From contig JAJDCA010000068.1 of assembly GCA_029261055.1 (NCBI GenBank), forward strand, positions 5,275 to 69,274: DNA of 64,000 nucleotides, written 5' to 3'. Shown one piece after another: positions 2,783 to 38,032 of this stretch (positions are counted from its first letter, which is position 1; the number at the start of each line of letters is the position of its first letter). Position numbers and translations under genes: made by a program. Source of the DNA: Candidatus Omnitrophota bacterium (GTDB lineage: Bacteria; Omnitrophota; Gorgyraeia; Zapsychrales; Zapsychraceae). Below the pieces are notes generated by a model that worked only from the letters and a program-made list of their open reading frames with translations, made no database searches and had not been told where the DNA came from.

Positions 2783-3777
2783 AATATGATTTTCCTTTTG
2801 TTGTCTTTTACAACTTTTCCAATCTCATAAAACTTAATATTTTTCTTTTTCAAAAATGTACTAATCCCATTAATATCTTTTTGACTAACAACCACAGCAT
2901 ACCCAATCCCCATGTTAAACGTTCTGTACATTTCTGAATCAGCTATTCTACCTTTTTTTTGAAGAAGTGGAAATATTTTTGGCGGCACCCAGCTCGCCTT
3001 GTCAATGGCAAAACATAACCCCTTTGGAAGAACCTTTGTAAGCTTGTCATAAAAAGCCCCTCCGGTCACATGCGCCATACCCTTTACCGAAAACTTACTT
3101 AAAATAGCCTGAACCTCATCCACATAAATCTTTGTCGGCGCCAACAATTCTTTTGCATGCTTTTTTAATTCCGCTCGCGACAAAACCTTCCTCACTAATG
3201 AAAATCCGTTAGAATGCAATCCGCTTGACGGTAATCCAATCACACGATCTCCCGCCTTAATTTTTCTGCCATCAATAATACCGCTTTTCTCGACAATACC
3301 TACGGCAAACCCGGCCAAATCATATTCATTAGGTTTGTACATGCCCGGCATTTCGGCTGTCTCTCCACCGATCAAACTACATCCAGACTGACGACAACCA
3401 TTCGCGATACCTTTAACTACATCTTTTAAAACTTTAGGATCCAATCGACCACAAGCAATGTAATCTAAGAAAAATAGAGGCTGGGCTCCGACACACAAAA
3501 TATCATTGACGTTCATCGCCACAAGATCAATACCAACGGTGTCATGAACACCCATACTTTGGGCTAACAAAAGTTTAGTCCCTACCCCATCCGTTGACGA
3601 AACAAGAACAGGATTCTTGTACTTCTTATTGTCGAGTGCAAAAAGCCCACCAAAAGCACCTTCACGATGCAGTACAGCGGCAGACTGTGTTTTTTTCACA
3701 TCCGCCCCGATGGCCTTTACAAAAATATTCGCCTTAGCAATGTCGACTCCACTAGTTTTGTAGGTAAATTTTTTCAT
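2779..3777 (-). CDS. purM: Phosphoribosylformylglycinamidine cyclo-ligase (AIR synthetase)
   Basis: 332-aa ORF with the PurM/AIRS N- and C-domain motifs (GGLFALD..., DLAGFAVGIVEK...). Confidence 0.92.
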   Translation of the reverse strand: MKKFTYKTSGVDIAKANIFVKAIGADVKKTQSAAVLHREGAFGGLFALDNKKYKNPVLVSSTDGVGTKLLLAQSMGVHDTVGIDLVAMNVNDILCVGAQPLFFLDYIACGRLDPKVLKDVVKGIANGCRQSGCSLIGGETAEMPGMYKPNEYDLAGFAVGIVEKSGIIDGRKIKAGDRVIGLPSSGLHSNGFSLVRKVLSRAELKKHAKELLAPTKIYVDEVQAILSKFSVKGMAHVTGGAFYDKLTKVLPKGLCFAIDKASWVPPKIFPLLQKKGRIADSEMYRTFNMGIGYAVVVSQKDINGISTFLKKKNIKFYEIGKVVKDNKRKIIL

Positions 3778-4169
3778 ATCTTTTTTCCATATTTCATAAT
3801 ATGCTGATCAATAACTTCTAAAAATTCTTTCGCATCACCCCAACATTCCTGAGCATCCGCATATTCCACAAAATACATGGCATCATAATCAGCTTTAACT
3901 CGATTATCTTGCTCCATATTAAATATTTTCCCATATTTCACATCAATCTTTCCTGTTTTAATAATATGTTGGCCAAAAAGTCTGCGTACAGCCCTATGTG
4001 AACTGGTGCTTATCCCTTCCAAAATTAAAACCGCCTTGGCTGCATGAAGAACGGCATAATATGATCGCGAAATAGCATCCTCATAATAATCATTATCTAA
4101 TAAAAGTTTTGCCGAATTTAAAGTCTTTTTAGCTCGACTTAATTCGCTATTCACTTCCTCCATACTCAT
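3774..4169 (-). CDS. HEPN-domain protein (putative toxin of a HEPN/MNT pair)
   Basis: 131 aa with an Rx4-6H HEPN motif (HRAVRRLFGQH). 4-nt overlaps with both the MNT gene upstream and purM downstream. Confidence 0.7.
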   Translation of the reverse strand: MSMEEVNSELSRAKKTLNSAKLLLDNDYYEDAISRSYYAVLHAAKAVLILEGISTSSHRAVRRLFGQHIIKTGKIDVKYGKIFNMEQDNRVKADYDAMYFVEYADAQECWGDAKEFLEVIDQHIMKYGKKI

Positions 4170-4495
4170 AGCGCAATAGCCTCATTTTCAACATTTTTAA
4201 TGAATTGCGTCTGAATACCCTTAAGGTAATTTAAATATTTTTTGGAAAAAATCTGAATAGAAAAAATAAGATCGTGCTGTATTTCTAAATCATATCCCGC
4301 GCATCTAATTTCCCTGGCAAGCTTTCTGTCATCTGAAGCTGTGACAATAAGAATATCAATATCCGAGTCCTTATGCGCATCTCCCCGAGCTTTTGAACCA
4401 AAAACTAAAACTTCAAGAATTTCTGATGCATGCTTTTTTTTAAGATTTTGCTTAAAAATTCCAAGAATTTTTTTTTCTTCCAGCGTTAACCCCAT
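4166..4495 (-). CDS. Minimal nucleotidyltransferase (MNT) domain protein (putative antitoxin)
   Basis: 109 aa; LVFGSKARGDAHKDSDIDILIV is a GS-x9-DxD nucleotidyltransferase motif. Sits immediately upstream of the HEPN gene, the usual MNT-HEPN order. Confidence 0.75.
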   Translation of the reverse strand: MGLTLEEKKILGIFKQNLKKKHASEILEVLVFGSKARGDAHKDSDIDILIVTASDDRKLAREIRCAGYDLEIQHDLIFSIQIFSKKYLNYLKGIQTQFIKNVENEAIAL

Positions 4496-9231: not shown

Positions 9232-9936
9232 TTACTTACTTACTCTATTCAAAACTTCTTGGTAGGCCTCTTCGATATCGCCCATATCATGTCGAAAACG
9301 GTCTTTATCCAATTTCTTGCCTGTCCCAGCTTCCCAGATGCGACAAGTATCCGGTGAAATTTCATCTGCTAAAATAATCTCACCCTTACATCGTCCAAAT
9401 TCTATTTTAAAATCAACCAAATCCAAATTCAATTTAGCAAAAAACTGCTTCATCAATGCGTTAATTTTAAACGTGTAATTCTTAATAACTTCAAGTTCTT
9501 CCGGGGTGGCTAAATTAAGAACCTGAATGTGATATTCATTCATCAAAGGGTCATTAAATTCATCACATTTGTAACAATATTCCAAAACCGGTGAAGAAAG
9601 CTCAACACCTTGTTCAGCTCCATAATTCCTACAAAAAGATCCCGCGGCTTTATTACGAATAATGACTTCAATCGGAACAATTTCCACCTTCTTAACAAGC
9701 ATCTCACGATCACTTAAATGCTTTTCAAAATGGGAAGGCACGCCCTCACTTTTAAGATACTCAAAAATTTTAGTAGAAATTTTATTGTTGAATACCCCTT
9801 TATTCTCGATCGTCCCTTTTTTGGCAGCATTAAAAGCCGTCGCGTCATCTTTAAAATACTGGATGACAAAATCAGGATCATTTGTGTTGTAAAGAATCTT
9901 TGCTTTTCCTTCGTAAATTTGGCCTTTTTTTTCCAT
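9232..9936 (-). CDS. purC: Phosphoribosylaminoimidazole-succinocarboxamide synthase (SAICAR synthetase)
   Basis: 234-aa ORF; MEKKGQIYEGKAKILY... is the PurC signature. Confidence 0.9.
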   Translation of the reverse strand: MEKKGQIYEGKAKILYNTNDPDFVIQYFKDDATAFNAAKKGTIENKGVFNNKISTKIFEYLKSEGVPSHFEKHLSDREMLVKKVEIVPIEVIIRNKAAGSFCRNYGAEQGVELSSPVLEYCYKCDEFNDPLMNEYHIQVLNLATPEELEVIKNYTFKINALMKQFFAKLNLDLVDFKIEFGRCKGEIILADEISPDTCRIWEAGTGKKLDKDRFRHDMGDIEEAYQEVLNRVSK

Positions 9937-11231
9937 TATTTTAATCCTATTTTTTTGAAAACTTTTTCCACATGACGCGTGTAATAGCGAATGTCAAAAC
10001 AAGCGTCGATTTCATTAGGTTTAAGATATTTTCTCACTTTTCTATCTCTGTAGAGAATATCTTTAAAATCTGACGTTTCTTGCCAAACCTGCATAGCACA
10101 ACGCTGAATAATATCATACGCAGCCTCACGAGCAACACCTTTTTTCATCAATTCTAAAAGGACTCTTTGCGAATAAATCAGCCCCTTAGTCCTGCTGAGA
10201 TTAGTGATCATATTTTTAGGATAAACCAAAAGCCCGTCCATGATGGATGTCATTTTGTGAAACATGTAATCGAGGGCAATCGCACTATCCGGCAAAATAA
10301 TCCTTTCTACTGAAGAGTGACTAATATCTCTTTCATGCCACAAAGTCATATTTTCAAATGCGGCCTGCGCATTAGCTCTTAACAAACGTGACATCCCGGT
10401 AACACGCTCACAAACAACAGGGTTGCGCTTATGCGGCATAGCTGAAGAACCGATTTGTCCTTTAAAAAATGGCTCTTCCACTTCTAAAACTTCTGTCTTT
10501 TGTAAAAGACGAATTTCCGTAGCAATTTTAGTAAGGCTGCCACCAATAAGGGCAAGTGTCGTTACAAACTGACAATGATGATCTCTTTGAATAATTTGCG
10601 TGGCAATATTAATCGGCTTCAACTCTAATTTTTCACACACATATTCCTCTACAGAAGGATCAATATTGGCAAACGTGCCGACAGCACCGGATAATTTACC
10701 GAAACGCATCATTTCTTTGGCCTGCTCCAAGCGTTCAGCATTACGTTTCATTTCATCATACCAAACACCTATTTTTAAACCAAATGTGGTGGGTTCTGCA
10801 TGCACACCATGTGTACGGGCGATACAGGTCGTATCTTTGTACTTTTTTGCTTTTTGTTTCAGAACCTGTAGAAATTTTTTAATATCGGCGAGAAGAAGAT
10901 CACTTGCTTCAACACATTGAACGGAAAGAGATGTATCCAAAAGATCCGAAGATGTTAGCCCCATATGTAGATATCTGGCCTCTGGCCCCAAATATTGACC
11001 AACATTATTAATAAACGCAACGATGTCGTGTTTTGTTTTCTCTTCTATTTTTTTAACTTCATCAATGTCAAATTTGGCATTCTTTTTAATTTTCTCCATC
11101 GCCTTTTTAGGAATAACGCCTAACTTGCACATAGCTTCACAAGCCAAAACCTCAATCTTGAGCATAATTTCCATCCTATGCTTCTCAGACCACACATCGC
11201 CCATTTTCGATAAAGTGTAACGATCAATCAT
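9936..11231 (-). CDS. purB: Adenylosuccinate lyase
   Basis: 431 aa; fumarate-lyase family with the ...GSSAMPHKRNP... signature. First gene of the minus-strand pur operon. Confidence 0.92.
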   Translation of the reverse strand: MIDRYTLSKMGDVWSEKHRMEIMLKIEVLACEAMCKLGVIPKKAMEKIKKNAKFDIDEVKKIEEKTKHDIVAFINNVGQYLGPEARYLHMGLTSSDLLDTSLSVQCVEASDLLLADIKKFLQVLKQKAKKYKDTTCIARTHGVHAEPTTFGLKIGVWYDEMKRNAERLEQAKEMMRFGKLSGAVGTFANIDPSVEEYVCEKLELKPINIATQIIQRDHHCQFVTTLALIGGSLTKIATEIRLLQKTEVLEVEEPFFKGQIGSSAMPHKRNPVVCERVTGMSRLLRANAQAAFENMTLWHERDISHSSVERIILPDSAIALDYMFHKMTSIMDGLLVYPKNMITNLSRTKGLIYSQRVLLELMKKGVAREAAYDIIQRCAMQVWQETSDFKDILYRDRKVRKYLKPNEIDACFDIRYYTRHVEKVFKKIGLK

Positions 11232-11309: not shown

Positions 11310-11411
11310 TGGAAATTAACGTAATTACAGCAATTTTCTCAGAAAAATGAATATAACCTATTGTTAATACTTAGGATACATTCTTAAAAAATTTATTCTA
11401 CCTAATGAATT

Positions 11412-11476
11412 CAAGCAAAGCTGGGGGGAGTTGGGCGGGGGTGATGTAGATTTTAACTAAATAGAATACCATTTTT
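11412..11476. repeat. Copy R4 (partial) of the giant-gene 3'-terminal repeat
   Basis: caagcaaagctggggggagttgggcgggggtgatg matches the core of 13437-13490. It is followed by atagaataccattttt, the tail motif shared with 11973-11990 and 12722-12738. Confidence 0.8.
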
Positions 11477-11687
11477 CAATAGTAATCTTCTTTCCTAAAA
11501 TAAGTTCAATTTCATGAAGCATCATTTTTAATTGTGGAACGGAATATTCATGATTGGAAGGAATCGCGAGACGATACCCTTGCTTCACCATAAAATGGTG
11601 ACGCGTGCCAGCAAAAGGCCCGTCAAATCCAAGCTTGCGTAAACGGCGAAGGAAATCTTTTCTCTTACACGGAGACCATCGAGTCAC
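11457..11687 (-). CDS. hicA: HicA-family mRNA interferase toxin
   Basis: 76 aa; KRKDFLRRLRKLGFDGPFAGTRHHFMVK...SVPQLKMMLHEIEL fits the HicA pattern. Confidence 0.65.
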   Translation of the reverse strand: MTRWSPCKRKDFLRRLRKLGFDGPFAGTRHHFMVKQGYRLAIPSNHEYSVPQLKMMLHEIELILGKKITIEKWYSI

Positions 11688-11931
11688 GACGCGGCTTTCT
11701 ATTAAGATTAAGTTTATTTAAGACAGGCAACTTGTGCCCTAATTTAAGACCGACAATAATCCAATCTTCTAGGATAGATCGTAATTCAGCTTCACATTGC
11801 GTCAACGATTTAGCAAAAGCAATCACACCTTTACATTTTGGTATGCGCCCCACAAATGAATTATCTTCCAGCTTATCATATTCAGCACGCGCTAATGCAT
11901 GCTGAATGTAATTAGTTAACATAAATTTCAT
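11665..11931 (-). CDS. hicB: HicB-family antitoxin (UPF0150)
   Basis: EDNSFVGRIPKCKGVIAFAKSLTQCEAELRSILEDWI matches the HicB/UPF0150 core. The likely start is MKFMLTNY (11931), inside the 11961 ORF. Confidence 0.6.
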   Translation of the reverse strand: MKFMLTNYIQHALARAEYDKLEDNSFVGRIPKCKGVIAFAKSLTQCEAELRSILEDWIIVGLKLGHKLPVLNKLNLNRKPRRDSMVSV

Positions 11932-11967
11932 ATGCCCCCCTTTTTTTCTAAACCATACCATGTTATC

Positions 11968-12080
11968 TATTTTAAGAATACCATTTTTTTCTCTACTTCG
12001 CTATATTTTCTATTTCTTCGACAAGGTCAATTGAAGCAAAGCCGGGGGGAGCTGGGCGGGGGTGATATTGAGGATGACGG
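11968..12080. repeat. Copy R3 of the giant-gene 3'-terminal repeat (tail + stop codon + core)
   Basis: ttcttcgacaaggtcaattgaagcaaagccggggggagctgggcgggggtgatattgaggatgacgg. On the minus strand it encodes ...SVILNITPAQLPPALLQLTLSKK*. Confidence 0.85.
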
Positions 12081-12095
12081 AATCAATATAATTTT

Positions 12096-12338
12096 TTAAC
12101 GATTTATTTTCTCATACAAAGTTTCCGGGGCAATATCAACACCATTAGGCCATGTAATTGTACCACCGTCGATAACCGCCTGCTTAAAAAAACGTAAATC
12201 ACGCAATGCCTCAAAAACAGGGCCCTTCTCTAAATATGCAGAAAAATCCACCTCTCCCTCTGACCCATCATCAAATACAATACGAAAAACATAATCCTTT
12301 TCATACTGTATTTTTTTTACCTCATTCATATTCCACAT
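12096..12338 (-). CDS. DUF2442 domain protein (partner of DUF4160; TA-like pair)
   Basis: 80 aa; [18 protein letters not shown] is a DUF2442-type C-terminus. Confidence 0.6.
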
Positions 12339-12346
12339 AATTCACC

Positions 12347-12607
12347 TCATGTTAATGGCTCAATTTTCTTAAGTTCTTTACCTGCCCTCGCAAATTCCCA
12401 ATCTTCAATAAGCTCTTTCTGATGGAGGTCTATCCACTCTCTAATTAATTTCCTCGCTGTTTTTGAATCTATACTTCCCCTCGTTACGTTCCCATTAAAA
12501 TCAAAAACTGCTTTATCATCTTGGTACTCAGCATGTAAATGCGGAGGATTGTGTTCATCGTAATACATTCTTATCAAAATTCCAAAAAACCTAGATACGA
12601 TTGGCAT
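12347..12607 (-). CDS. DUF4160 domain protein
   Basis: MPIVSRFFGILIRMYYDEHNPPHLHAEYQ is a DUF4160 hallmark. The start is at the internal Met, preceded by an AAAGGA RBS. Confidence 0.65.
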   Translation of the reverse strand: MPIVSRFFGILIRMYYDEHNPPHLHAEYQDDKAVFDFNGNVTRGSIDSKTARKLIREWIDLHQKELIEDWEFARAGKELKKIEPLT

Positions 12608-12712
12608 TAAAATTCCTTTCTTTAGTAATTTATAGTATTCGCAAATTAAATTCGTTAATTTTGAAATAGCCATCAGTGTCGATTCAAGGTGACCTAAAAA
12701 TCTACGTATTTG

Positions 12713-12871
12713 TTTTGCGAATACTATATTTAAAGAATACCATTTTTTTCCTCATCGCGCTATATTTTCTATTTCTTCAACAAGGTCAATTGAAGCAAAG
12801 CCGGGGGGAGTTGGGCGGGGGTGATGTTGAGGATGACGGAGACAAGGCCAGGGAAGTTGCCGGTTTGGATG
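12713..12871. repeat. Copy R2 of the giant-gene 3'-terminal repeat (tail + stop + ~114-nt core)
   Basis: About 90% identical to 13425-13540. On the minus strand it encodes ...IQTGNFPGLVSVILNITPAQLPPALLQLTLLKK*, in frame directly after the DUF2442 stop codon. Confidence 0.9.
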
Positions 12872-13105
12872 TCAGGTATTTGCGGCTTTGTAAAGACCAT
12901 CAATGGATAAGTCCTCATCCACATCCGGCCAATGAATGCCGTATCCTGACGGGCTTACACAATAATTTTGTTTCTGCGCTAAACTTGCGGTGGTTAGTCT
13001 TTTTGAAACCTGAGAAATATCAATAGCATATTCTTTACCATCAATTTGCAACATCATGATATTTTCTTTAAAAAAAACATTTTTGACATTATGCATCTTA
13101 TTCAT
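12872..13105 (-). CDS. DUF2442 domain protein
   Basis: GYGIHWPDVDEDLSIDGLY is a DUF2442 motif. Start uncertain (MNKMHNV... or MHNV...); the full ORF runs to 13159. Confidence 0.6.
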   Translation of the reverse strand: MNKMHNVKNVFFKENIMMLQIDGKEYAIDISQVSKRLTTASLAQKQNYCVSPSGYGIHWPDVDEDLSIDGLYKAANT

Positions 13106-13355
13106 CTTTTCCTCCCATAAATTCATCCCACTGAGCCACAATGTAATCAAAATGATCAAATATAATTTTCCTAATACTTCTTTTATCTTGTGGACTCATA
13201 TTGTATCCATAGGCTTCACGAATTTCATAAATATCAACATCAAGCCAATACTTACACTCAGACTCTGCTTTTTTACAATGAATGTGTATCGGCTCATTAC
13301 CCTCATTAGAATAAAAATAAAGCCGCCACCCCATTATGACTAAAATTGTCGGCAT
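13098..13355 (-). CDS. DUF4160 domain protein
   Basis: MPTILVIMGWRLYFYSNEGNEPIHIHCKK. Internal Met start with an AGGAGA RBS. Confidence 0.65.
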   Translation of the reverse strand: MPTILVIMGWRLYFYSNEGNEPIHIHCKKAESECKYWLDVDIYEIREAYGYNMSPQDKRSIRKIIFDHFDYIVAQWDEFMGGKDE

Positions 13356-13424
13356 GTGCATTTCTCCTTTCGCTAAAAAGGATGCCATATTTTTACATAT
13401 TGGTCAAGGAGGATTTGCATGTGC

Positions 13425-13540
13425 TTATTTCTTCGACAAGGTCAATTGAAGCAAAGCCGGGGGGAGTTGGGCGGGGGTGATGTTGAGGATGACAGGGACG
13501 AGGCCGGGGAAGTTACCGGTTTGAATGTCACGCATCTGTT
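13425..13540. repeat. R1: the 3' terminus of the giant gene, the master copy of repeats R2-R5
   Basis: Encodes ...MRDIQTGNFPGLVPVILNITPAQLPPALLQLTLSKK*. Near-identical copies lie at 12758-12871, 12011-12080 and 11412-11448; a diverged copy lies at 37321-37385. Confidence 0.9.
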
Positions 13541-16500
13541 GCTGCAGCATGGCTGGGTCCAGGTTTAGCTCTAAACCTTGCCCCTGAATCTGCATGTCCA
13601 TGCCTTGCGGGTCCAAGTTGATTCCACCGAGAGATGCCTTCGTCTTTTGATTCAGCATGGCGTTGTCTACATTTTTTAATTTTTCTTCCAAGCGCGATAA
13701 TGTCGCTTCATAATCTACTATTGATGAATTAGCTTCCATTCTAGCATCTTTACTCTTTATTGACCCATCATCTGGCATTGCTTTAAAATAATCCTTATTT
13801 TCTTGAAGCACCTTTTTAATTCCCTCAATTTCCGCCATAATTCTTTGTTTCTCCTCAAGACTTTTAAGCACTTTTTGTACAGCGGCTATCCTTGCGTCCT
13901 TTTCTACCGAAGATGCTCCTACTTCTTTTAAAGCCTTTGATTCTAATAGTTTATCTAACTTAGAATCATCGGTTAACATCGTTCGAAGAATTTTTATTTG
14001 CTCATCAATATTTTCATCCATTATTGTATCTTTTGGCAATTGCCCTTTAAGAACACCTATGGATGAATCTAAAATCAGCGTTCTCATAGATGAACGCGTG
14101 TCAATACTCACAGTTCCTCCATCGAGAGTCTTTCCTGTTACCATATCTTTTATTGTCTTCAGCACTTTTATGCTAACAATCGTTTCTGCTGTTTCTTGAT
14201 CAATAACTGACGTCTTTTGATTTTGCGTATTGTAATTTTCCTTATCGACAACTTTACTGTCTGACGCTTCCCGCCTTTTGCGCAGATCCTCCGACAATGT
14301 AGCGATGGCTTGATCCAATGTCGCAATTTCCTGATCCAGTTTCACGGACTCTGTAAGGTCGTCCTTCGCAGCAACCCGAGTCTTTCGCTTCTCTATCCGC
14401 TCCTCCATCGCCTGAACCCATTGTTTGGACAGATCAGATATTTCATCATCAACACCCTTCGAAACTTCTAATTGCTTATCTAACTCTATAGGATCCGCCC
14501 CTTGAGCTTTTAATGCCGCAAGCTCTGCTGTCCAATCATGAATATCTTTATTGGCCATGGCTTTCTTGGTTACTACAGCCAACTCACCCACTGTCAATGT
14601 ATACCCATCCCTTTCTTTTATTTTTGACTTAATTTTTGTCTCAAGTTCTTTTATTTTAAGCGTGCCGGCTTGTGTATTTGGCGCATCTTTTTGGTTCGAG
14701 GCCTTCGCCTCAAACGCGGCCTTTTCTTGCGCCAGCAACCCATCGATCTCCTTTTCTCTCTGATTCCATTCATCCTCAATCTCCATCCATTGGGCCGTCT
14801 CTTTTTTAAGGGCCTCGATTTTGACGGGGCGGTCGTTGTCCACCACGTCATCGCCGCCATCTAACGGCTCTGCGATTTGGCGTATATGGGCGTATTTGAC
14901 CTTGCCGTTTTCATCTTTATACATCTCTGCTGCCTCCAGACGATCCGGAGAAAACTCAAGGTCATAAGCTTTTATCTTAGTGTTTTTCTTAAATGAATTG
15001 TCAATTAATGTATGCACACTATTGCTAACTTCCTCGACTCCCCTTCCATCACCTTTTATAAACCCCACCCTTACACCTGCATTTATAATATGATGGCTAT
15101 TGGGTAAAAATTTTGCCACCTGACCATCCGCTGTCTCAAGGATGTCAATTTTCTTCCAATCGTTATCTCCAACCTTATCCTCCCATACAGTTCTATTAAA
15201 AGATGTCGTCACAATAATCATCTTCCCATCTTGGGACAACTCCAAATTCTTTACCTCTCTATTACCGGAATCAAATCCTTTATTATCAATAACGTTTCCA
15301 TCTTTGTCATGAAAATTAACGAATCCACTTTCCATGCCTGTTAAAATAAATTCACCATCTTTTGTAAACCTTGTAAAACTTGCATTGCCGCTTAAAAACT
15401 TACCTTTACCCGTAGTCATATCAAATAGATATTGCTTACCTTTTTCCGTCAATAGCACTACCTTGGTCGAATCTGAATTAATGTCGATGCTTTCGACTTT
15501 TTCTTCTAACCTCTTCCCGTTCACTTTAAATTCCTTTATCTCTTTGCTTTCATCCACAGGCACAATGCCTTGAAAATTGTCCGCAATAATCACTGACTTT
15601 TCACCATCCGGCGCGTCAACAATAAAACTTTTTTCGGGGTTAATTTGAATAGCGTTTGTAAATAATGGACGAGAACCCACATCATCTGGCAAAACATCAA
15701 CCCACTGCATAGAAGATTCACCACCAATCCATAAAATACGGCCATCCCCGGATAATTTCACCACAACATTTTCTACTCCGGCAGGAAAACTTAATAACTC
15801 TTCATCGGCTCCTTTAGCCGTATCGCGCACACGCCAATGTGGCGGCTTCCCCTGCCTATCCTCTCGCGTCAAAACAATCCTTCGCTTGACCGGAGGAGCC
15901 CCCTTCTTGCTACCATCCATCAGCCACGCAACCTGCACAATTTCCTCGTTATCTGGGGCCGTATACGGCTGAATCACCGTCATATCCTTCGCCGCTAAAA
16001 CCTTGACGGCGCGGGGTTGGCCGGTGGACATAAACTTAGCCACAGGCCAGACGGTTAAACCGCTCTTCATATGCGCCATGACGCGCAGAGGACCTTCGGT
16101 TGAAAATTCCAGTTTGGGCACGACATCTTTATCCACATTTTTCAAAGCATCTGGCGCCGGTAGCTCTATGCGCTGTTTTGTATCCATATTCTCCAGCCAA
16201 TATTTACCTTTACCATCCACGACAGCTAAATAAATCCCATCCGAAGACAACGCCAACGCCTTAACACCATCTTCAAACGGATCTGCTTCTCCTTTAAAAT
16301 CTCCTGTTTGCGCATACCACCAGCGCACAATGCCATCTTTTTTACTTACTGTCGCCACCCTGGTGCTGTCTAGCGAGTAGACCGGCCCTACATTCGCACT
16401 TGTATTTTTTTCTAACTCCTTCAAAGGTCTTTCATTATTAACATCCCACAACTTCGAAACCCCACCATCCTTATCCAAAATAACTATCCATTTATTATTC

Positions 16501-19500: not shown

Positions 19501-22500
19501 AAACCAACATCACTTTTCCCCTCATATGTACCTATTGTAGGCATCGTCCGTTTTGATCCAGAAAGAATATTTTCCCCCACCATAACGGTTTTTCCATCTG
19601 GCAAAATTTTCTGATTCCCATGCAAATAGTTTTCCTCTGGAATCCAATCTTTAATATTTTCATCCCACTTCCATAATTTCCACCTACCATCCATTTTTAC
19701 ATTCACCTTGTGCATAATTTTTCCATCCCAAACAACATCCAAATCCTGTACAGGCTCATTGCCAGCGTTAATGCTTTTAAATTTTTCTTCTGTTTTGACA
19801 TCTTCAAAATCTACTGTTTTGGCATCTTCAAAAAGAACAAATCCGTTGTTCGTTCCTCTCAAAGAAACCTGACCATCTTCTGTAAATTTTGAAAAGACAA
19901 CATTAGCGTGATATTGAAGATGCGATCCTGTATTCATATCAAATTTATAACTATTATCATGATTCGTTAAAACTGCTGCGTATTGCGAATCCGAAGAAAT
20001 CTTCACATTTAGTACTTTGAGTCCCCCCTTAGCGAACGGTTCTTCCCCGAGAGCATCTTTAAATTCCTTCTCGTCTTGCCCATCTAAATGCACAATACCC
20101 TGAAAATTATCTGCAATAATGACAACTTTATTGCCGTCTAAGGCATCCTCGACTTTATGAATACGCCCTAAATTTTTACGAATCTCCTTCCAATCATCTT
20201 GAATCAAACTCGATGAAACAAAAAGCTTTCCATTTTTTTCTGCGTCAAATAATTTCTTACCATCTTTGGAAAATTGAAGAGTTCCTGTTGACATAACTGG
20301 CCTTAATAAATTTTCATCATTTTCATTCTTTCGTGCAATATCCCGCACTTTCCATACTTGCAGCTTATTTAACGTCAAAACAACCCTTCGAGTGACCGGC
20401 TCAGGCCCCGTATCATCTTCCACCCACGCATGCTGTACAATTACCTCCCCCTCCGGCGCGGTGTACGACTCTTTCACCTTCATTTGATCGGCTGGTAAGA
20501 CTTTGACTTTACTGACATCGGACGTATCATTTTTAGACATAATATTACGAATCGTCACATATTTTCCACGTCCATCATGGTTATAAATTTCCATCTGCGC
20601 AAGCTGGCCATGAATCAATTGAATATCGGCTAACTCAAGTATTTCAAGATCAGAATTAAGAGGCGCATCCATTTTATAGGTGCGCAAACCATCTGTAAGA
20701 TACAAACCAGCTGTTGCATTTCCCTCTGGAGCGTCTCTGAAAAACATAATATGCTTGCTATCCGGTAAAAACTTGGCTCTAATTGCATTCTCGAGTGAAT
20801 AATTCTCGTCTAGCGTCCATTCTCCAGAAATCGCATCTTTTTTCCATACAGTTATTTTGCCAAACTTTGCCTTAACAATTAATTTATTTTTATCCAAAGA
20901 TCTTTCCAAATATTCTATGGAATCATTTCCTGGCAAATTAAAAACATCTTTGGTCTCTTCTCCAGTATGGGAATCGCGAAATGAAATACCCCCACCTATT
21001 TTTCCAATTAAAACTACTTCATCATCTAAAGAAAATTTAGCAAAATTTATATTTGAATATTGCGATCTATAGATCCGTTCTCCATTTTCAATATTAATAA
21101 GATACACATTATAGTCAAACATCACGAAAGCAGCGAGTTTCCCATCTTTTGAAATTTCAATACTTTTCATATTCCCTTGCATATCTTTTAAAGGAATATC
21201 TTTACCTCCATTTAAACTTACAACACCTTGAAAATTCTTGGACATAACAAGAATACCCTTCTTAACTTTCTTAAGCTCAATCCCTCTCACAAGATCTAAA
21301 TTTTTATTTATTTTTATCCAATCATCCTCCTCTTTATTTACATATTTATAGCTAACCCCCTCTGACGTTGCCATCATCAGAATTCCCTCTTTAGATAATG
21401 TAAAACCATCATACTGACCAAGCGTTTCTTCTACTTTTGGAGTCCCCTCAATCATAGCTTGACCTTCAAAATTGCGCATTTCTCCCCAAACCCGCCATAC
21501 CACTTTCTTTTCACCATTATTTTCGATATCTTCACGCGTTACCACATACCAGAAGCCAGAATAATTTAATTCCACAAATTCGACAACACTTTCATTTTCC
21601 GAAATCCCCCAAGATTCAATATTTTCTTTTATTTTCTCCACAGGCAAAATTTCATCCTTACTGCCTTGTGTTGTCTGAGCATTCTCTGGCTCCAACTCCG
21701 CTTTCGCTTGTGCCACTTTCTTCTTATTAACCAACGCCTGCTTGCCTTGAACTCGGGAGTCTATTCTCTCTGTAAGCAAAGCTCTTCGAGCCTCTAAGTG
21801 TTTGCGTTCGTGCTTTTGCATACCAGAAGAAACTTGTTTTTTAAGAAAATCCCTTAATTGATTAATTTCACCTTCAAAAATTTCTTTTAATTCTATTTCA
21901 TGTTTAATTGAGTTTTTAAGATTTTGTAGTGTCAGGCCATTTCCAGAAGCATCCTTTATTTCTTCGGCTTTGATCGCTTCCTTTAATTTTTTAATTTTTT
22001 CTTCCTGTTTCGCAATTAAAGCTTCTTTTTCCTTAATAATATTTCTAAGCTGCTCCTGATCATTTGAAACACCACTAATCCTCTGTCCCAACATCACATC
22101 AACTTTCTCTAATTCCACTCTATCCGCCGCAAGCTCCCCATCATAATCGTCTTCCGTCATATCAATAACACCGGAGAGAGGTTGTTTTAATTCCTGTATC
22201 TTCTTCTCAACATGCTCAAGCATATCTTTGAAAAGATCTTTGTATGTTTCATTACGCAACAGGGGTGGAACCTTTTCCAAAGACGAAAGTTTATCTTCTT
22301 TTAGCTTATTGATTTGTTTAAAAAATTGATCTTTTAGATCCTTAACAGCACTTTTCTTCCCTTGCCCCATAGCTATCCGCCCAATTAAATCTCTTATGGA
22401 TAGCATGGCAGCGTCTTTTTTTCCCGAATTCAGCACTTCTCCACCACCTCCTCTGACAACAAAAGGCTGCAATTGAGTTCTATCTTCATTAAAAATAACG

Positions 22501-25500
22501 GCTTGATTTTGGTGGGGAAAGAATTTGGCTTCCCTCTGAGAAAATTTATTCTCCATTAATTTTCCATATATTTCACCTGTACGCGCATTCACAATTCCAA
22601 TATTATTAGATTTCCCAATGCCGAAGAAATGTTCATTATCCAAAAATACCGCCCCCAAGTTAAGCAGCGTTATTGAAAGATTTATCCAGGCAGGTGACGC
22701 AGGCATTATTCTTTCACCCGTCATAACATCCCACACGTGCAGCTTGCCTTCTTTATTCCTGGTCAACAAAGTTTTCCCATTGGGAGACAATTCCAGGTCA
22801 ACAATTTCCCCTGCGGCAGAAACAAGTATGGGAGGGGAATTTATCCCAGTATTAAGATCTCGTAAAATGACATTTTTTCCCTGAACAAACATTAAATATT
22901 TTGAACCTCTAGAGAATTTGGCGAAGGATACAGAATGTTCTTGCTGAATCTCTGATTTTGTGTCCATATTCCTAAAAGCCAACGTCCCAATTCCAATCTT
23001 ACCCTTTAGGCTCATAAACAACCACCGATTATTATCAGAAAGTTTACTGACCACCGAGATGCCGGCATTACCTAACGATAATAGATCTGATTCATCATCG
23101 ATTGCCCAATTCCATACGATCGTTTTCTTATCATTATGATCCTTTGTATTCTTTTCCATAATAATTCGTGAACCATCCTCTGAAAAAGAAAAATCATCAA
23201 ATTCACCTTCTTTACTTGTCGCCAACGGCTTACCCTTATCGATCTTGCGTACCTCCCATAATTCAATTTTCCTTTGTGATGGTTTATCCTTCCAAACCTC
23301 CTTGGCAACCTTAGTACCATCCGGCGAAAGATGGGCTGAATTTGTCACTAAAAGGTCAAAAGAATTTACTTCATCTCCCCCCTTCCTCACATCGCGCACA
23401 ATCCAATGATTTTTCCCATTCGCACGAACTATATTATCCTCCGTCAAAACCAGGCCACTTTGCGGCGAATAGTCGACAATGGTCTCACCCGGTGGGGCCG
23501 TGTACACATCCAACGCTTCCAAAACTATCTTGCCGCTACCGACTTTATTTTTCAAATCATTTGCGGCGGCAAGCTCCGCATTTTTTTTCTCCAGCGCCAA
23601 CTGCTCATCAAAAGATTGCTCCTGCTTCAGATACTTAGCCTTCTGCGCCGCCCATTTCTTTTTTTCCTTTTTAAAGGCTTCAATTTTGTCGGACAAATCA
23701 CTACCTGAAAAAGCTGATCCTCCTCCAACGTCTTTCGCAATCTCGTGGATGAGTACATGTTTTGTTTGGTCCCCTTCCTGCCATGTGGTGGCTTGTTCGA
23801 GATTATCAGGGGAAATATTTAAACCTTTAACTTGCATATTTTCTACATTTTTTAATTTACCTAAATCATTTATACGATGCACAGGTCCGTTCCCGCTTAT
23901 TACACCTAAGGCAGGTTTACCCTTATCTAAAACTCCTGCCGTCATAATTTGACCATCGGGTAAAAATTTTGATTCTTCGACCACCACTGAACTCAAGGGA
24001 TCCCATTTTCTAGCGTCTGGCTTCCATTCATACCTTGCCTTAAATCCTTTTGTTGCCACAATTAATTCCTTCTTATTAAAAGATAACTCTATATCCTGAA
24101 CAGCATCGCTTACCTGAAGCCCTTCTATTTTTAGAGCCCCTGTATGGGGACTTTTAATACTGACTCTTCCATCTTCCGAGCCTGTTAATATAAACTGGCC
24201 ATCCCTTGAAAATTTTGCAAAACTAACGCTATCCCCTTGAAGCATGAAGCCTTCCCCCGTCTCCATATTAAACAAATACAGAGCTTTCGACTTTGTCAAA
24301 ACAAGCGCCTTGCTCGAATCCGAATCGGGAGAAATGTCGATACTTTCGACTTCTCCCTCTAATTCTTCCCCGTTAACTTTAAATTCCTGCGTCTCCTTAC
24401 TCCGTCCATCCAAATACGCAATGCCTTTAAAATTTTCGGCGATCACTACCACTTTATTACTGTCTGAAGAATCTTCAAATTGCTCGATTTTTCCAAATTC
24501 ATATCGCACTCCACCCCTTGGCTCGCCCTCCAAATTTTCTCGAAAAACCCCATCAGGAGTTGCAAACAAGAATCTATTACCATCCTTAGATATCTTAGAT
24601 TTTTCCTCCTTACTTACCGTATCTTCTCGTAATGGATCTACACTCTCTTCTTGCTCAATATCGCGCACTCTCATTACCTTCGAATTAGGATCGTCAGCTT
24701 CCGCCTCAGTCAAAACAACCCTTCTCTTTACCGGCACATCCCCGTTACCATCCATCTCCCACGCCACCTGCATAATCTCTTCCCCATCCGGCGCAGTGTA
24801 CGTCTGAATCACCTTCATATCCTTCGCTGGCAGGACTTTAATGTCACCTTGTACAGTGTTCTTATCCTGCCCTGCTCCTGCCTCTGGATGTGCATCATCA
24901 ATAAGCCATTTATGGGAAACACGATCATAAACATTTTCGGAACTAATCTTTTCTCCCGTTTTTACATCAATAATTTCTCCATCTCGATGATGCTGCATCA
25001 AAACTTTTGTCCCACCAGGTGAAAGTTCAACATACGCTTTCGGCCATTCAAACACACGTAATTCTTTTCCACCTTTTACGTAACGCACATGCCATCGGTA
25101 ATGCTTTACCATTTTCGTATACGCATATTCTTTTTCTACTGTTAATACCCTCAACCCATCCTCTGAATATGAATGAACCTCCTCTGCGTCCTTAGGCTTA
25201 AAGGCGGGGGCACTGCTCATAAAATCAGCCACAGGCCAGACGTTTAACCCGCCTTTAACATGGGCTTTGACGTGGTGCTCTCCATCACGTGAAAATTCTA
25301 ATTCCGGCACCTCATCTTTCTCAAGCTTTTGTAAAGCATCCAATGCCGGCAGCTCTGTCCGCTCATTACCTTTTTTTTCTAAATCCTGCAACCAATATTT
25401 GCCCTCACCATCCACGACGGCTAAATAACGGCCATCATGAGAAAGGGCCACGGCTTTAACACCTTTTTTATGTTGCTTGGTTGCTTTTATTAATGCACCT

Positions 25501-28500
25501 TTTTCCGCATCCCATACACGCACTACCCCCATTTTACTAACTGTGGCTACCCTAGTGCTGTCCCGGGAAAAAACAGGCTCTAATGCGGCTTTAGTATTTT
25601 TTTCCAAATCAAGCACCCGCTTTTCTTTCTCAACATCCCACAACTTCGAAACCCCTCCATCTTTATCTAAAATAACCATCCTCTTATTATCCGGAGATAT
25701 TGTGGGTTGGACCTGAATTTTTAAACCTGTCTCTAACCCGAATCTGTACCCACTTTTAATATCCTTTACCCTCACCATGCCCTCTTCATCAGTCGCTATA
25801 ACCTTGGTTCCATCAGGAGAAATATCCGGATGCAACATTGGATCGTTAGGTAAACTCGATGATGTGGGGGATGTCGTGTCTATAGTATCAAATAGATCAT
25901 ATCTTCCACTATTCGTTGTCCTAAACACATGATTACCATCCGGCAAAAGTTTTGCAAAAGGATAATTACCTAAGTCAATACTTTCATCCTCACCTTTTAA
26001 GTCCCACCACACGAATTTTCCATTATCATCCTTTGTCAGTATTTTTGTTTCATCATCAGAAACACCTACCACTTTCGCATCAAATCTATGACCCCTATTC
26101 CATGTGACTAACTCAATATTTTTCATATCACGTATGCGCACGTTACGAGAAGCACTCGATGCGCCAATCTCCTTCTCCTGCGTCACCACCTTGCGGCCGT
26201 TCCAAAGAAACCCAATAACTTCCTCCCCTGGCAGTGGTTCATAATTTATAATCCCTTCCGTGTCCACCGCTCCTTGCTGCAATGCCTCTGCTTTCTGAGC
26301 CTCCACAGCCTTCGCCTCTTCTGCTTCTGCCGCTATTTCCTTAATCAACGCCTGTTTACCGTTAACCACCGCTATCAGTTTCTTTGTAAGAAGTTCCTCT
26401 TGTTTGTTTGGCCCCTGAACTTGAAGCTCGAGTTCTTTTATTTCTGCTTCTAATTCCTTTTCCCTTGTTCTATCTGGGAGAGCAACACCAGTTTCTAAAG
26501 TAATATCGCTTATATGTTGCTCTTTCACTAATTCCTTCTTAAGCCCTTCTATATTTCCAACCCCTTTTGACGGCTTACGAATTTTTATTAATTCTTTTTT
26601 CACTTCACTCTCAACCTTTTCGTAATCCTTCAGCGTTCTCTCGATATCTACAGGGCGGGATTGTTTTAATTCCTGTATCTTCTTCTCAACATGCTCAAAT
26701 ATATCTTTAAAAAGATCTTTGTGTGTTTTCCTGCTCAACAAAATTTGAACCTTTTCTAGAGGCTCAAGCTTATCTTTTTTCAAATCGGTGATCTTTTCAC
26801 GCAATTCCTTTTTTAGCTTACTAACAGCCTCCTCATCATTTTTCTGAAAATCTATCCACCAAATTAATTCTCCTATGGATAGCATGGAAAAATCTAACTC
26901 ATCCAATCCTTTCGTAAATTCAGGATCATAGGAATCTTCGATTTCCTTCATTGTTTGGTCAAAGAATGCGGCCGACCAATCGCGTTGAATACCCAAATTC
27001 TTAATAAGATCTTTCGTTGCATTCATTCTGTTCTTATTTCCCTCTTTATGTTGTTCCCATGTTTCGCCTTTACTTCGATAATTTAAAATAAAATCAATTT
27101 GATCCATAACCTTCTTCATCATAATCATTCGACTGCGTTGTTCCTCGAATTTCTTTAGTTCTTTCCATGATTTTTCGCTCAATAACTCTGCGATAATTTC
27201 ATTAAGATTTTCAATATTTTGCTCTGTTTGGCTTTCAAATGTATTGGTCCATAAGAGCTGGAGAATACGGTCTAATTCCGGATGACCTGTATCCGGCTCT
27301 TTGCCTTCTTCAATTTTCAAATTCTGAATAATGACACTTTCTTTATCAAGAAAATCAGAAATGGCATCAACGTCAGGATCATCACTAAACAATCCTTTTT
27401 CACCGGCCACATCTAAAATATTATTCTCGACCGGTGAAGTTTGATCAAAGTCACCCTCTATTTTAAAGGCCTTCATAAATTGTTCATGGATAATACGTTC
27501 TGAAATTTTTGTTTTGGCTCTCTTTTTAAAAGACTCACTCTTTTCTGTCCCTGTCTTTGCAATTTTTTGCAATCCATCAGCCCTCAAATAATTAAACCGA
27601 TCCACTAAAAACTTCACGTCTTTCACCAAAACACGCACACTGATTTCACGACGTTTAGGCAGAGTGGTACCGTCCAAAGATTGCCGATAATTTAACTCCT
27701 GCGCCATACCGATAATGCCGTCATATTTGACGCTTCCGTCAGGATAAGTTTCGTACTCTACATCGCTTACTTCTTGCTCCGACTTAGGAATCGGCATTCC
27801 GATAAGACGCGGATTAAGCCGCACCACTTCGCCGGTTGAATCTAGCTGTTTGGTTGAAACTTTACTTAAAAGTTTAAACATCAAGTGCGGCGGTAAAGGA
27901 TCAAATTGAATGGCAGGAAGACGTGCCAATAAATCTGCGGGAAGGCCCTTGATACCAGACGTAGAACCCGGGGTATTGCTTAAAGCAATCAATCCAAAAT
28001 TATCTGCCCCCTTACGCTTTTTATCCTTTTTCGTCGGATCAGGAGTCTCATCATATACAATCACATCATTCAAAGCACTAAGCACTTTATCTCTGGACTG
28101 CGCAATTTCTTCAACGATCAACACATTGCCTTCTCCATGCTCATCTTCCATAGCTAGCGGTAAGGCATTGATAGTTATCTTTGAATTACCACCCACCATC
28201 CCCTCCTGAAACGTAATCTGATCGAGCCGTGTTTGTGCTGTCATCTCAATCGTATGTTCTCCCGGTTTATTGCGCAGACGTACAATGGCCTTTGCTAACG
28301 TACTCTTTCCGCCCCCCGGGCCACCCACAAAATGAACTTTAATCTTCAATGCCTGCAATTGCAGCGTTAAATAAAGTTTCCCTACATTGGCTTTCAAATA
28401 CGTATTGACTTCATTTACATCCTTGGCCACATCAGCAAATTCAATCCAGTCAATAATCTCTTGCGGCAGGCCGGCATAATGAAAAGAAGCTTTAGAATGA

Positions 28501-35988: not shown

Positions 35989-37209
35989 TTATAAAGCAAG
36001 CCATGGAACGGCATAAATATTTGTCGCAATCGGAAACACTTTTGTTCCTGAATACACAATGATACCTTTTTGTGCTTCCGGGTGGAGTTTTAAGAATTTG
36101 CGCATAGATTTAGTATCCTTAAAAGTAACTTGAGATGATGATTTCACTTCTATTCCCATAATCTTTGTTCCGGAACGGATTACAAAATCAACTTCACTCT
36201 CCCCTTGCCTTGGTTTCCAATAGTAAATTTCAGGCTCAACAGACATCGTGGACACCCATGAGTTGATCTGTTGAAAGATATAATTTTCAAAATACCGCCC
36301 CTTTAAATTTTTATTCTTTAATTCTTTCTCTGATACAATTCCGGCCAAAAAACACGCAGCTCCCGAGTCAAACCAAAAATATTTAGCTTGTTTATAGGCA
36401 CGTTCATTTTTGGTTGTATAACCTCTTAACTCATGCAATAAAGCCGTATCCTGTAATAAACTCATATACCGGCTGACATTTGTACGTGTTTCTGAACATA
36501 ATTTAGATAATTCATTCTGAACGCTTTCCCATCCCGTGGCCTGAGCCAAAGCTTCCATCAGACGGCGAAAATTCTGAGGATGTCTTATTTTCACTAAATC
36601 TTGAATATCCCGGTGGATATAAGTATCAATGTAGCTGCTCCCTCTCTCCCAAGCGACTTTGTCGCTTGAAGCCAACACAACTCCAGGCAAACCTCCCCGC
36701 CAAACAATTGTTGTTAAATTATTAGATGCTTTTACGGATTTTGGTTTAATTTCTTTACCTGCCCAAGCCTGCTCTAGAATTCCTTCGTGTGACAACCCAT
36801 GCAATTCCCTATGACTCAAGCCCGTTAAGTGCAGATATTTGGCTCTGCCCGCTAAAGTTTCCCTTGGGCGTTGGCGTAGTGAAATATTTCCAGATCCAGA
36901 TAAGATAAAACGTCGTCTCCGCTTACTTTTATCAACGAAATACTTAACCGTTAATAATAATTCCGAACATCTTTGGACCTCATCAATAATCGTCGGTTTG
37001 TCTTCCCAAAGAAGTCCTTTAGGGTCTTCTTGAGCCTGTTCCAATACTTCTGGATCATCTAAAGTTAAATATCGCCAGTTTTTTAAAAACCGAGCGTTTT
37101 CCAAAAGAGTACTTTTGCCCACCTGTCGTGGTCCTGTCAAAATGACCACGGGGTGAACCTCAAAAGACGCCTCTATTCTTTGTTCCATCCACCGTTTTAT
37201 ATATTTCAT
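35989..37209 (-). CDS. AAA-family ATPase with a C-terminal DUF4143 domain
   Basis: VVILTGPRQVGKSTLLEN (Walker A) is typical of the AAA/DUF4143 ATP-binding protein family. Likely start MKYIKRW. Confidence 0.7.
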   Translation of the reverse strand: MKYIKRWMEQRIEASFEVHPVVILTGPRQVGKSTLLENARFLKNWRYLTLDDPEVLEQAQEDPKGLLWEDKPTIIDEVQRCSELLLTVKYFVDKSKRRRRFILSGSGNISLRQRPRETLAGRAKYLHLTGLSHRELHGLSHEGILEQAWAGKEIKPKSVKASNNLTTIVWRGGLPGVVLASSDKVAWERGSSYIDTYIHRDIQDLVKIRHPQNFRRLMEALAQATGWESVQNELSKLCSETRTNVSRYMSLLQDTALLHELRGYTTKNERAYKQAKYFWFDSGAACFLAGIVSEKELKNKNLKGRYFENYIFQQINSWVSTMSVEPEIYYWKPRQGESEVDFVIRSGTKIMGIEVKSSSQVTFKDTKSMRKFLKLHPEAQKGIIVYSGTKVFPIATNIYAVPWLAL

Positions 37210-37320
37210 GGCTATTCTCCTTCTGCCAATAAGCATACCACTCAATTATGCACAGATCAACATATATTTGTGCACAAATATACATAATATTTTGCACATA
37301 TTTACATGGTTCAAGAAAAA

Positions 37321-37385
37321 TAGTGACAGGGGTAATTGGGCGAGGTAATGTGGAGGATGACTGGGACAAGGCCGGGGAAACTACA
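37321..37385. repeat. R5: diverged (~75-80% identical) copy of the giant-gene 3' repeat core, immediately 3' of vapC
   Basis: caggggtaattgggcgaggtaatgtggaggatgactgggacaaggccggggaaactacattacagg aligned against 13455-13520. Confidence 0.7.
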
Positions 37386-37796
37386 TTACAGGATTTTTAT
37401 CCCTATTTTCCGACATACGGCATTTAATTTTTTATCGAAAGATGCCATATCTAAATTTTTCCTTAAGGCGAGCTCTATATAAGAAGCATCATAAACTGTT
37501 ATTTTATGCTCTCGACTGATAGCTAAAATATCTTTTGTAATGTTATCGTAACTATTATTTTCCACAAAAAGCGACAAATCTTTTAAACTACTAATAAAAG
37601 AAACAGAATCTGCTTCCTTTATGCGTCCATTTTTCTCTGCAATAAATAACGCATTCGACAATTCATATGGCCATAATGAAGGGACATAGGCATTTTGCTT
37701 AAGAAGCTTGTTCAATAACTCTTGAGATTTTTTAGTGTTTTCGTCTTTAAACACCCAACTTAAAATGACGGAATTATCTACGACAAAATCTTTCAA
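37386..37796 (-). CDS. vapC: PIN-domain toxin (VapC-like)
   Basis: 136 aa: an N-terminal D (VVDNSVIL), a D in VYDASYIELAL, and PIN-like overall size and architecture. Confidence 0.65.
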   Translation of the reverse strand: MKDFVVDNSVILSWVFKDENTKKSQELLNKLLKQNAYVPSLWPYELSNALFIAEKNGRIKEADSVSFISSLKDLSLFVENNSYDNITKDILAISREHKITVYDASYIELALRKNLDMASFDKKLNAVCRKIGIKIL

Positions 37797-38032
37797 TACC
37801 GCCTCCCTTTTTTAATAAGTTTCTGAATTTCCTTTTGAGGCAGCTTATATTTTTGGCGTATTTCTAGAATCCGTGCTATCGCCTCTTCGGCTTTCTTTTG
37901 ATTATTTTCTGGGGGCAATATTCTTGCAACTGGTTTTCCATTTTTTGTAATTAAATACGTTTCTCCGCTAAATGCCTTTTGAACGATTTCTGCAAAATGT
38001 GTTTTTGCTTCGAAAGAGCCTATCTCAACCAT
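37793..38032 (-). CDS. Phd/YefM-type antitoxin
   Basis: MVEIGSFEAKTHFAEIVQKAFSGETYLITKNGKPVARILP matches the Phd/YefM N-terminal pattern. 4-nt overlap with vapC. Confidence 0.6.
   Translation of the reverse strand: MVEIGSFEAKTHFAEIVQKAFSGETYLITKNGKPVARILPPENNQKKAEEAIARILEIRQKYKLPQKEIQKLIKKGRRY

Follow-up and report, generated by a model that had tools for sequence, protein, structure and literature searches.

Copies of a gene end and toxin-antitoxin pairs stacked behind a giant gene in an Omnitrophota bacterium

In a 64,000-nucleotide window of contig JAJDCA010000068.1 from a Candidatus Omnitrophota bacterium (assembly GCA_029261055.1), three toxin-antitoxin (TA) pairs lie 3' of a giant gene, and behind each pair stands a leftover 40-110 bases of the gene's own end. 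This array may well be a stack of displaced gene ends, built up by repeated recombinational capture of segments made of a terminal block of the gene plus a TA pair. The cassettes are independent acquisitions, and the copies of the gene end have diverged as coding sequence. From these patterns we infer the direction and order of the events, the import of DNA from other lineages, a homology-driven mechanism and a role for addiction in determining which cassettes survive. All coordinates below are those of the window, and the features of the array lie on the minus strand throughout.

Copies of the gene end

Read along the minus strand, the gene order is secG, phd and vapC, a first repeat copy (R0), a gene for an AAA_14/DUF4143 ATPase and the giant gene, which closes with R1. 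After R1 come a DUF4160/DUF2442 pair and R2, a second DUF4160/DUF2442 pair and R3, hicB with hicA and R4, and finally purB. An earlier reading of the same stretch (the original prediction) had claimed that the giant gene's 3' terminus recurs three times, each time behind a two-gene module. This is borne out by a 31-nt core (CACCCCCGCCCAACTCCCCCCGGCTTTGCTT), of which the window holds four copies with at most one mismatch, all on the minus strand (13449-13479, 12793-12823, 12034-12064 and 11413-11443), where shuffles give an expectation of 0. When R0 is included, there are five copies in the window against 0 expected, and a core of about 25 nt is common to all five.

R1 (13425-13530), which is the working 3' end of the giant gene together with its stop codon TAA, serves as the reference copy. 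R2 (12769-12874), a displaced copy that ends in TAG, is 93% identical to R1 over 105 nt (ungapped match 12770-12874). R3 (12010-12081), also displaced and ending in TAG, is 97% identical to R1 over 68 nt in a BLAST alignment (12011-12078) and 93% identical over 72 nt in register. The shortest copy, R4 (11398-11447), shows 95% identity over 40 nt (ungapped match 11408-11447); read in the giant gene's frame, it gives an alternative ending, ITPAQLPPALLEFIR and then a stop codon, and R4 may be the oldest of the resident termini. A stop codon is thus included in each of R1-R4. R0 (about 37327-37380) is a diverged copy (85% over 52 nt) that encodes FPGLVPVILHIT before a frameshift. It lies right after the stop codon of the PIN/VapC gene and upstream of the ATPase and giant genes, and hence the repeat copies are not confined to the giant gene's downstream side. 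The assumption that the repeats are tied to the terminus of this gene alone is not supported, as R0 has no such gene upstream; the gene on its 5' side is secG, which is not a member of the giant-gene family.

Past their stop codons, R2 and R3 share about 55 nt (11968-12086 versus 12727-12845, 90-92% identical), which agrees with the extra tail originally described for these two copies. The common tail spans 12727-12768 on the R2 side and 11968-12009 on the R3 side. Both tails contain an exact 14-mer (AAAAATGGTATTCT; 12734-12747 and 11975-11988, respectively), and another copy lies within the 3' end of hicA (11463-11476), immediately preceding R4. The original prediction had hicBA bracketed by this 14-mer; both bracketing copies are there, but the third exact copy at 12734-12747 had been overlooked. 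The 14-mer includes the ATG that opens short open reading frames (ORFs; MVF...), and GAGG precedes it in the R2 tail. Its hicA copy overlaps a promoter-like TTGAAA-18-TAAAAT; a promoter reading of the 14-mer found one weak match only. A 32-nt inverted repeat (12631-12728, 84% complementary, 34-nt spacer) separates the R2 tail from the beginning of the second DUF4160 gene and could be a TA operator. The spacers between the cassettes and the preceding repeat are AT-rich and about 70-160 nt long.

Cassettes and divergence of the copies

The first cassette comprises a toxin-like DUF4160 gene (DhiT-like, 13098-13352) and its DUF2442 partner (DUF2442a, 12872-13105), and the second a DUF4160 gene (DhiT-like, 12347-12607) with a DUF2442 gene (DhiA-like, 12096-12338). 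The third consists of the antitoxin gene hicB (UPF0150, 11665-11931) and a gene for a HicA-like putative toxin (11457-11687), the last codons of which hold the 14-mer at 11463-11476. In the cassette next to R0, a Phd/YefM antitoxin (37793-38032) is paired with a PIN/VapC toxin (37386-37796). Domain matches agree with the contents first proposed for the three cassettes behind the giant gene (DUF4160/DUF2442 twice and HicB/HicA), with the HicA-like ORF matching HicA_toxin only at E=0.019, below the Pfam threshold. The DhiT/DhiA-like matches of the DUF4160/DUF2442 pairs likewise fall below NCBIfam cut-offs. With two small, adjacent or overlapping genes of known TA families each, the cassettes fit predicted type II TA systems, and by their ORFs and domain matches they hold only TA genes. 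One more TA pair, of the MNT/HEPN type (3774-4495), separates purQ from purM, which adjoin in most related loci, e.g. L004; it has no gene-end copy.

The proteins of cassettes 1 and 2 are about 20% identical, and the two cassettes have no DNA similarity, whereas the repeats that flank them are 90-97% identical. Tandem duplication of a cassette is ruled out by this difference, which also indicates that the copies of the gene end are not local duplicates. The proposal of serial, independent acquisitions at the gene's 3' end, each leaving a copy of the terminus, is upheld by this contrast, by the mostly synonymous differences between copies and by the occurrence of the same layout with other TA families in five further contigs (described below).

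When the mismatches of the window and of four of these contigs (L117, L128, L133 and L146) are assigned to codon positions, 10, 13 and 53 fall at the first, second and third position, respectively. The third-position share (53 of 76, 70%) departs from one third with p=1e-10 and from 0.5 with p=4e-4. Copies differ by 3-15%, mostly through C/T transitions at third codon positions, and encode nearly the same 13-38 residues, with short tails that read QLTLSKK, QLTLLKK or EFIR. Between R1 and R2 there are five synonymous codon changes, TAA to TAG counted, and two non-synonymous ones. The displaced copies (orphans) show the same pattern among themselves, six of the seven differences between the two orphans of L133 being at third positions. 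Orphans are not kept as reading frames, since R0 and the orphan of L113 are frameshifted and R3 is without a start codon. The third-position bias must therefore predate displacement, which means that the copies were once working gene ends. In addition, R2 and R3, unlike R1, have a TCC codon, the TAG stop and the tail in common; this grouping against R1 fits a late arrival of R1, as the last of the termini, from a more distant donor.

Recurrence in other contigs

Metagenome contigs were scanned with a profile of the C-terminal domain that the gene end encodes (four-sequence alignment A3), followed by a hidden Markov model search of six-frame translations and self-BLAST of the gene ends; intervening genes were named by Pfam. 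Orphans were found at about 5 of about 80 gene ends examined. In L128, the gene is followed by an Unstab_antitox/ParE pair, an orphan R' (42 nt, 93%), a BrnT/BrnA pair and a second orphan R'' (169 nt, 91%). A BrnT/BrnA pair also follows the gene in L117, with an orphan of 48 nt (92%) that reaches its own stop. The gene of L146 is followed by a MazE-like gene with its partner and an orphan of 167 nt (89%), and that of L113 by DUF4258/DUF2283 and an orphan of 32 nt. L133 carries a MazE-like gene and partner, an orphan, a HicB/HicA pair and another orphan (106 nt, 93%). The contigs are independent assemblies from several projects, and repeat lengths span 32-169 nt. In all five the domain belongs to a subfamily other than that of the window, so the arrangement exists in at least two lineages.

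Several other loci have repeats of a related kind. In L108 (13698-16168, minus strand), a comM/yifB Mg-chelatase-like gene is followed by two further copies of its last 65 nt or so with the stop codon (14477-14541, 97%; 13698-13734, 92%). The layout is similar, with non-TA cargo: an IS200-like Y1 transposase gene and ORF6N genes, delimited by these copies. In L121 (2259-3534), an MNT/HEPN pair just 3' of a family gene is flanked by 53-nt direct repeats (94%) of intergenic DNA. In L159 (3796-4862), a DUF2442 cassette flanked by intergenic direct repeats of 32-35 nt lies downstream of a large Peptidase_S8 gene; its DUF2442 is 58% identical to that of the window in an alignment and 63% by BLASTP. 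No gene-end copies were found in the contexts of the nearest DUF2442 homologues (L158-L161).

Junctions and search for a site-specific machinery

The 5' limits of the copies differ from one another. Where the profile detected an orphan, the limits lie at profile positions 13, 26, 29, 29, 40 and 48, and those of R0, R3 and R4 are estimated at roughly 46, 52 and 57. R' of L128 (the last 42 nt) and the orphan of L113 (-93 to -63) do not overlap, and there is thus no common core across loci. The single fixed att site that had been suggested for the array is accordingly not supported. In L117 the BrnTA cassette meets its orphan at -48, and its homologue in L128 does so at -175. Some junctions also run into cassette genes. 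The ParE of L128 reads into R', and DUF2442a is truncated, its C-terminus being 4-8 aa shorter than those of homologues, with a stop codon (TGA) that falls at the first bases of R2 and is taken from it. The junctions look illegitimate rather than site-specific.

A Pfam scan of those window ORFs of at least 120 aa that lie outside the giant gene's span revealed neither an integrase nor a reverse transcriptase or transposase domain, in keeping with the earlier observation that no integrase lies in the window. Single-strand folds of R1-R4, computed for both strands, are no better than those of shuffled sequences (z +0.2 to +1.5), and attC-like folding was rejected on this basis. By eye, the repeats contain no GTTRRRY/RYYYAAC (R''/R') boxes and the core no inverted recombinase arms, although no formal dif search was made. 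The 64-kb window contains no tRNA or tmRNA gene and no RNA family of Rfam. A search for a plasmid or phage origin gave no match, and the core pattern had no match in the genome or metagenome contig collections. A generic repetitive extragenic palindrome or miniature inverted-repeat transposable element (REP/MITE), named at the outset as an explanation that would undo the prediction, was rejected, there being only five copies in 64 kb, all of them behind TA pairs or at the gene end, with no fold and no match of the core pattern in those collections.

The giant gene and its terminal block

The giant ORF (13425-35873) encodes 7,482 aa and ends in IQTGNFPGLVPVILNITPAQLPPALLQLTLSKK. It has a weak vWA match (below the Pfam cut-off), AAA_5 and many WD40/beta-propeller repeats. 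A conserved C-terminal domain block (13428-13667) runs from GGINL to FPGLVPVILNITP and a tail, and the repeated block codes for the end of this domain. Its general pattern is GGI[DN]L, about 40 residues, G[LF]xP[VI]I[IL]N[IV]TP and a short tail. Neither Pfam nor NCBIfam has a model for it. In an exhaustive HMMER search, 83 representatives with lengths of 66-3,551 aa were recovered, and in every one of them the domain forms the very C-terminus. An unannotated, always-terminal C-terminal domain is thereby defined for the giant protein's family, and it may be a sorting or secretion signal. A word-index search with the C-terminal 300 aa of the giant protein gave no homologue.

Conservation at the DNA level within the family is limited to the last 150-260 nt of the gene. 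Tandem paralogues are common (L091, L107, L110, L112, L131, L140 and L150), and the terminal block is often the only DNA similarity detectable between them (L140, L107 and L131), which makes this block a natural homology arm. Long direct repeats also occur inside the family's large genes, such as one of 1,022 nt at 100% identity in L107 (4737-7672); the giant gene of the window has an internal repeat (22182-26887) with 83% identity over 121 nt at a spacing of 4.5 kb.

On the downstream side, purB (9936-11231) is the conserved anchor of the locus. The pur operon is syntenic in 80 Omnitrophota loci. Upstream of purB these loci are not syntenic, except that six of them (L049, L063, L068, L069, L071 and L073) have distant family members there, without cassettes. 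Such proteins of distant Omnitrophota, of 900 to at least 1,750 aa, carry the C-terminal domain, and in two of them the N-terminal domain of the giant protein is present as well. On the other side of the giant gene, the AAA_14/DUF4143 ATPase gene (35989-37245) lies between it and R0. Nearly all genes of the window are encoded on the minus strand. In L032 (6790-10293), L052 (16734-18352) and L001 (17779-19761), successive pur genes are followed by intergenic repeats of 40-80 nt, which have the appearance of a dispersed element with no relation to the copies of the gene end.

Proposed origin of the array

If the array is a stack of displaced ends, DNA from diverged relatives, carrying the block and then a TA pair, would have recombined repeatedly within the block. 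With each event the gene would acquire a fresh, intact terminus followed by the incoming cassette, and the old terminus, now truncated at its 5' side, would end up downstream of that cassette. Three events at the giant gene would yield the order R1-[DUF4160/DUF2442]-R2-[DUF4160/DUF2442]-R3-[HicBA]-R4. A separate event, probably at a neighbouring paralogue since lost, would account for [Phd/VapC]-R0; R0 and the array of L133, both with no family gene upstream, are possible remains after the loss of a tandem paralogue. The joining itself could be carried out by host recombination, either through a circle inserted by a single crossover or through one homologous crossover and one illegitimate joint. 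Host recombination is the most likely means by which the cassettes were joined, and a dedicated integrase is less likely, because the limits are variable, cassette genes are clipped, and neither a structured site nor a recombinase was found. As a cassette between direct repeats can be looped out again by host recombination, only addictive TA pairs would resist such loss, which would account for the fact that nearly every cassette is a TA pair. TA cassettes are known to stabilise chromosomal integrons.

Several points weigh against this origin. No close relative is present in the collections, the next PurB being 87% and the next DUF2442a 65% identical, and no empty site, donor, circle or variant in array length was seen; the source species occurs once in the protein collection, with PurB and DUF2442a at 100%, as a single contig (202,522 bp) of a metagenome-assembled genome. 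The window covers 64 kb of this 202-kb contig, and a trans-acting recombinase could lie elsewhere. The roughly 11 orphan limits all fall within the gene's last 200 nt, for which homology and illegitimate joining are insufficient alone; this clustering might be put down to survivorship, if long repeats are lost quickly. R0 and the array of L133 require an extra deletion step, as no family gene lies upstream. Finally, the exact 14-mer on both sides of hicBA and the shared tail of R2 and R3 are left unaccounted for.

A broader proposal, which we put forward tentatively and as less than probable, is that Omnitrophota have an integrase-free form of cassette capture. Its docking site, usable again and again, would be the conserved terminal coding block of a family of genes for very large, possibly surface-exposed proteins (and perhaps also that of comM). 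A segment arriving with a block of its own would make the gene whole again and push the former end further downstream, and addiction would decide which cassettes persist, so that integron-like TA arrays arise by host recombination alone. If this is true, integron-type cassette arrays can form without an integron, and the pile-up of TA pairs at given chromosomal sites is explained by the survival of only addictive cargo between direct repeats. The end of Omnitrophota giant genes would then be a recombination hot spot, with a bearing on gene exchange and retention.

Alternative explanations

An integrase acting in trans is the main rival, because only 64 kb of the genome has been seen. Integrase-less cassettes whose attP mimics the gene's 3' end would be integrated serially and site-specifically by a recombinase encoded elsewhere. 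Genomic islands insert at the 3' ends of tRNA or protein genes, and cis-mobilizable elements (CIMEs) are integrase-less and flanked by att sites. The direct repeats, which extend over the stop codon and restore the gene (in L117 and L128 as well), suit such integration, as do the core of about 25 nt in the five window copies and the position of the 55-nt R2/R3 tail and of the 14-mer on the other side of R4's core, where arm sites might be. It nevertheless appears unlikely, in view of the absence of recombinase domains from the scanned ORFs and of a core that, by eye, lacks the inverted binding arms of tyrosine-recombinase core sites. Moreover, every copy has its own 5' limit, R' of L128 and the L113 orphan have no core in common, the same BrnTA cassette has different junctions in two contigs, and cassette genes are truncated or fused at their junctions.

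Alternatively, the orphans could be decayed tandem paralogues, of which the downstream copies kept only their 3' ends while TA pairs settled in the gaps. Tandem family members are common, synonymous-biased divergence is expected between paralogues, and R0 and L133 would be accounted for. However, the orphans are all at most 200 nt long and inside the terminal block, with no N-terminal or internal gene fragment seen, and exactly one or two TA pairs stand between successive orphans at seven loci. Such a pattern would not result from deletions with random endpoints in genes 2-22 kb long, and decay of paralogues is quite improbable as the source of the array.

A local duplication of the gene end at each insertion, by long target duplication or replication slippage and followed by neutral drift, is very improbable. 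L121 and L159 do show small cassettes flanked by 30-70-nt direct repeats of non-coding target DNA, but neutral drift is at odds with 70% of differences at third codon positions, found also between one orphan and another. R1 is moreover the outgroup to R2 and R3, and the repeats vary in length from 32 to 169 nt.

The original prediction had likened the array to an integron. Small co-oriented cassettes separated by a repeat recall an integron-type array or a CALIN (an attC cluster lacking an integrase), and TA cassettes are typical of chromosomal integrons. This comparison did not survive as an explanation and is scarcely credible, given that the scanned ORFs have no IntI-like domain and that the repeats are coding sequence without a hairpin or, by eye, boxes, while the cassettes have two genes and are separated from the preceding repeat by AT-rich spacers. 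Equally remote is an assembly artefact from strain mixtures or a diversity-generating retroelement (DGR; variable region/template region, VR/TR pair), even though the source is a metagenome-assembled genome and a copy of a gene's 3' end just downstream is a hallmark of DGRs: the copies differ by 3-15% and in their limits, the layout recurs in independent assemblies of several projects, a strain bubble cannot put a repeat behind each cassette, and the DGR was rejected for want of a reverse transcriptase domain in the scanned ORFs and of adenine-specific mismatches, which here are mostly third-position C/T changes.

Comparison with known systems

For all its likeness to integrons, Rhs/CdiA orphan arrays and att-flanked islands, the array belongs to none of these classes. 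Its architecture joins the TA stack of an integron, the displaced-end logic of Rhs/CdiA loci and the gene-restoring repeats of 3'-end islands, and lacks the defining features of each. Literature on Omnitrophota giant genes and wider searches contained no description of such an arrangement and nothing similar, which leaves standing the initial view that it is not a described system; the nearest mechanistic precedent found is the H47 island.

As in sedentary chromosomal integrons, small co-oriented cassettes form a linear stack with a repeat after each, and TA pairs are over-represented, plausibly because they stabilise the stack against repeat-mediated deletion. Unlike in integrons, the repeat is the coding end of a host gene and not a structured attC site, the cassettes have two genes and the junctions are variable. 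The likeness to the orphan-module arrays of polymorphic toxin loci, noted from the start, is a sound one as far as architecture is concerned. In both, 5'-truncated copies of a conserved 3' region lie downstream of a large gene whose product is, or in the case of the giant gene may be, a surface protein, each copy being an earlier, displaced ending, with variable 5' limits and coding-type divergence. In contrast to Rhs/CdiA, no variable toxin domain is present in the displaced ends, autonomous type II TA pairs take the place of CT-toxin/immunity pairs as cargo, and there is no VENN or PxxxxDPxGL-type demarcation motif.

With 3'-end genomic islands and CIMEs, the array shares repeats that include the gene end, an incoming copy that regenerates the gene and elements that pile up. 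The elements are, however, only 0.5-0.8 kb long, with no integrase and no fixed crossover point or core, and some cassette genes are truncated at the junction. The pdif modules of Acinetobacter plasmids are also integrase-less, often consist of TA pairs, are bounded by a short repeated site and are moved by host enzymes. Those modules use XerC/D sites of 28 bp that alternate in orientation on plasmids, whereas the repeats described here are direct, 40-170 nt long, coding and chromosomal.

The H47 genomic island of E. coli is small, flanked by direct repeats, and excises without a recombinase of its own and without RecA (PMC5426353). Like the cassettes of the array, it is small, lies between repeats and has no recombinase, so that it must depend on host functions to move. 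H47 occupies one site as a solitary unit and has att-like repeats of its own, unlike the Omnitrophota array, in which such units are stacked behind a gene whose terminus is copied.

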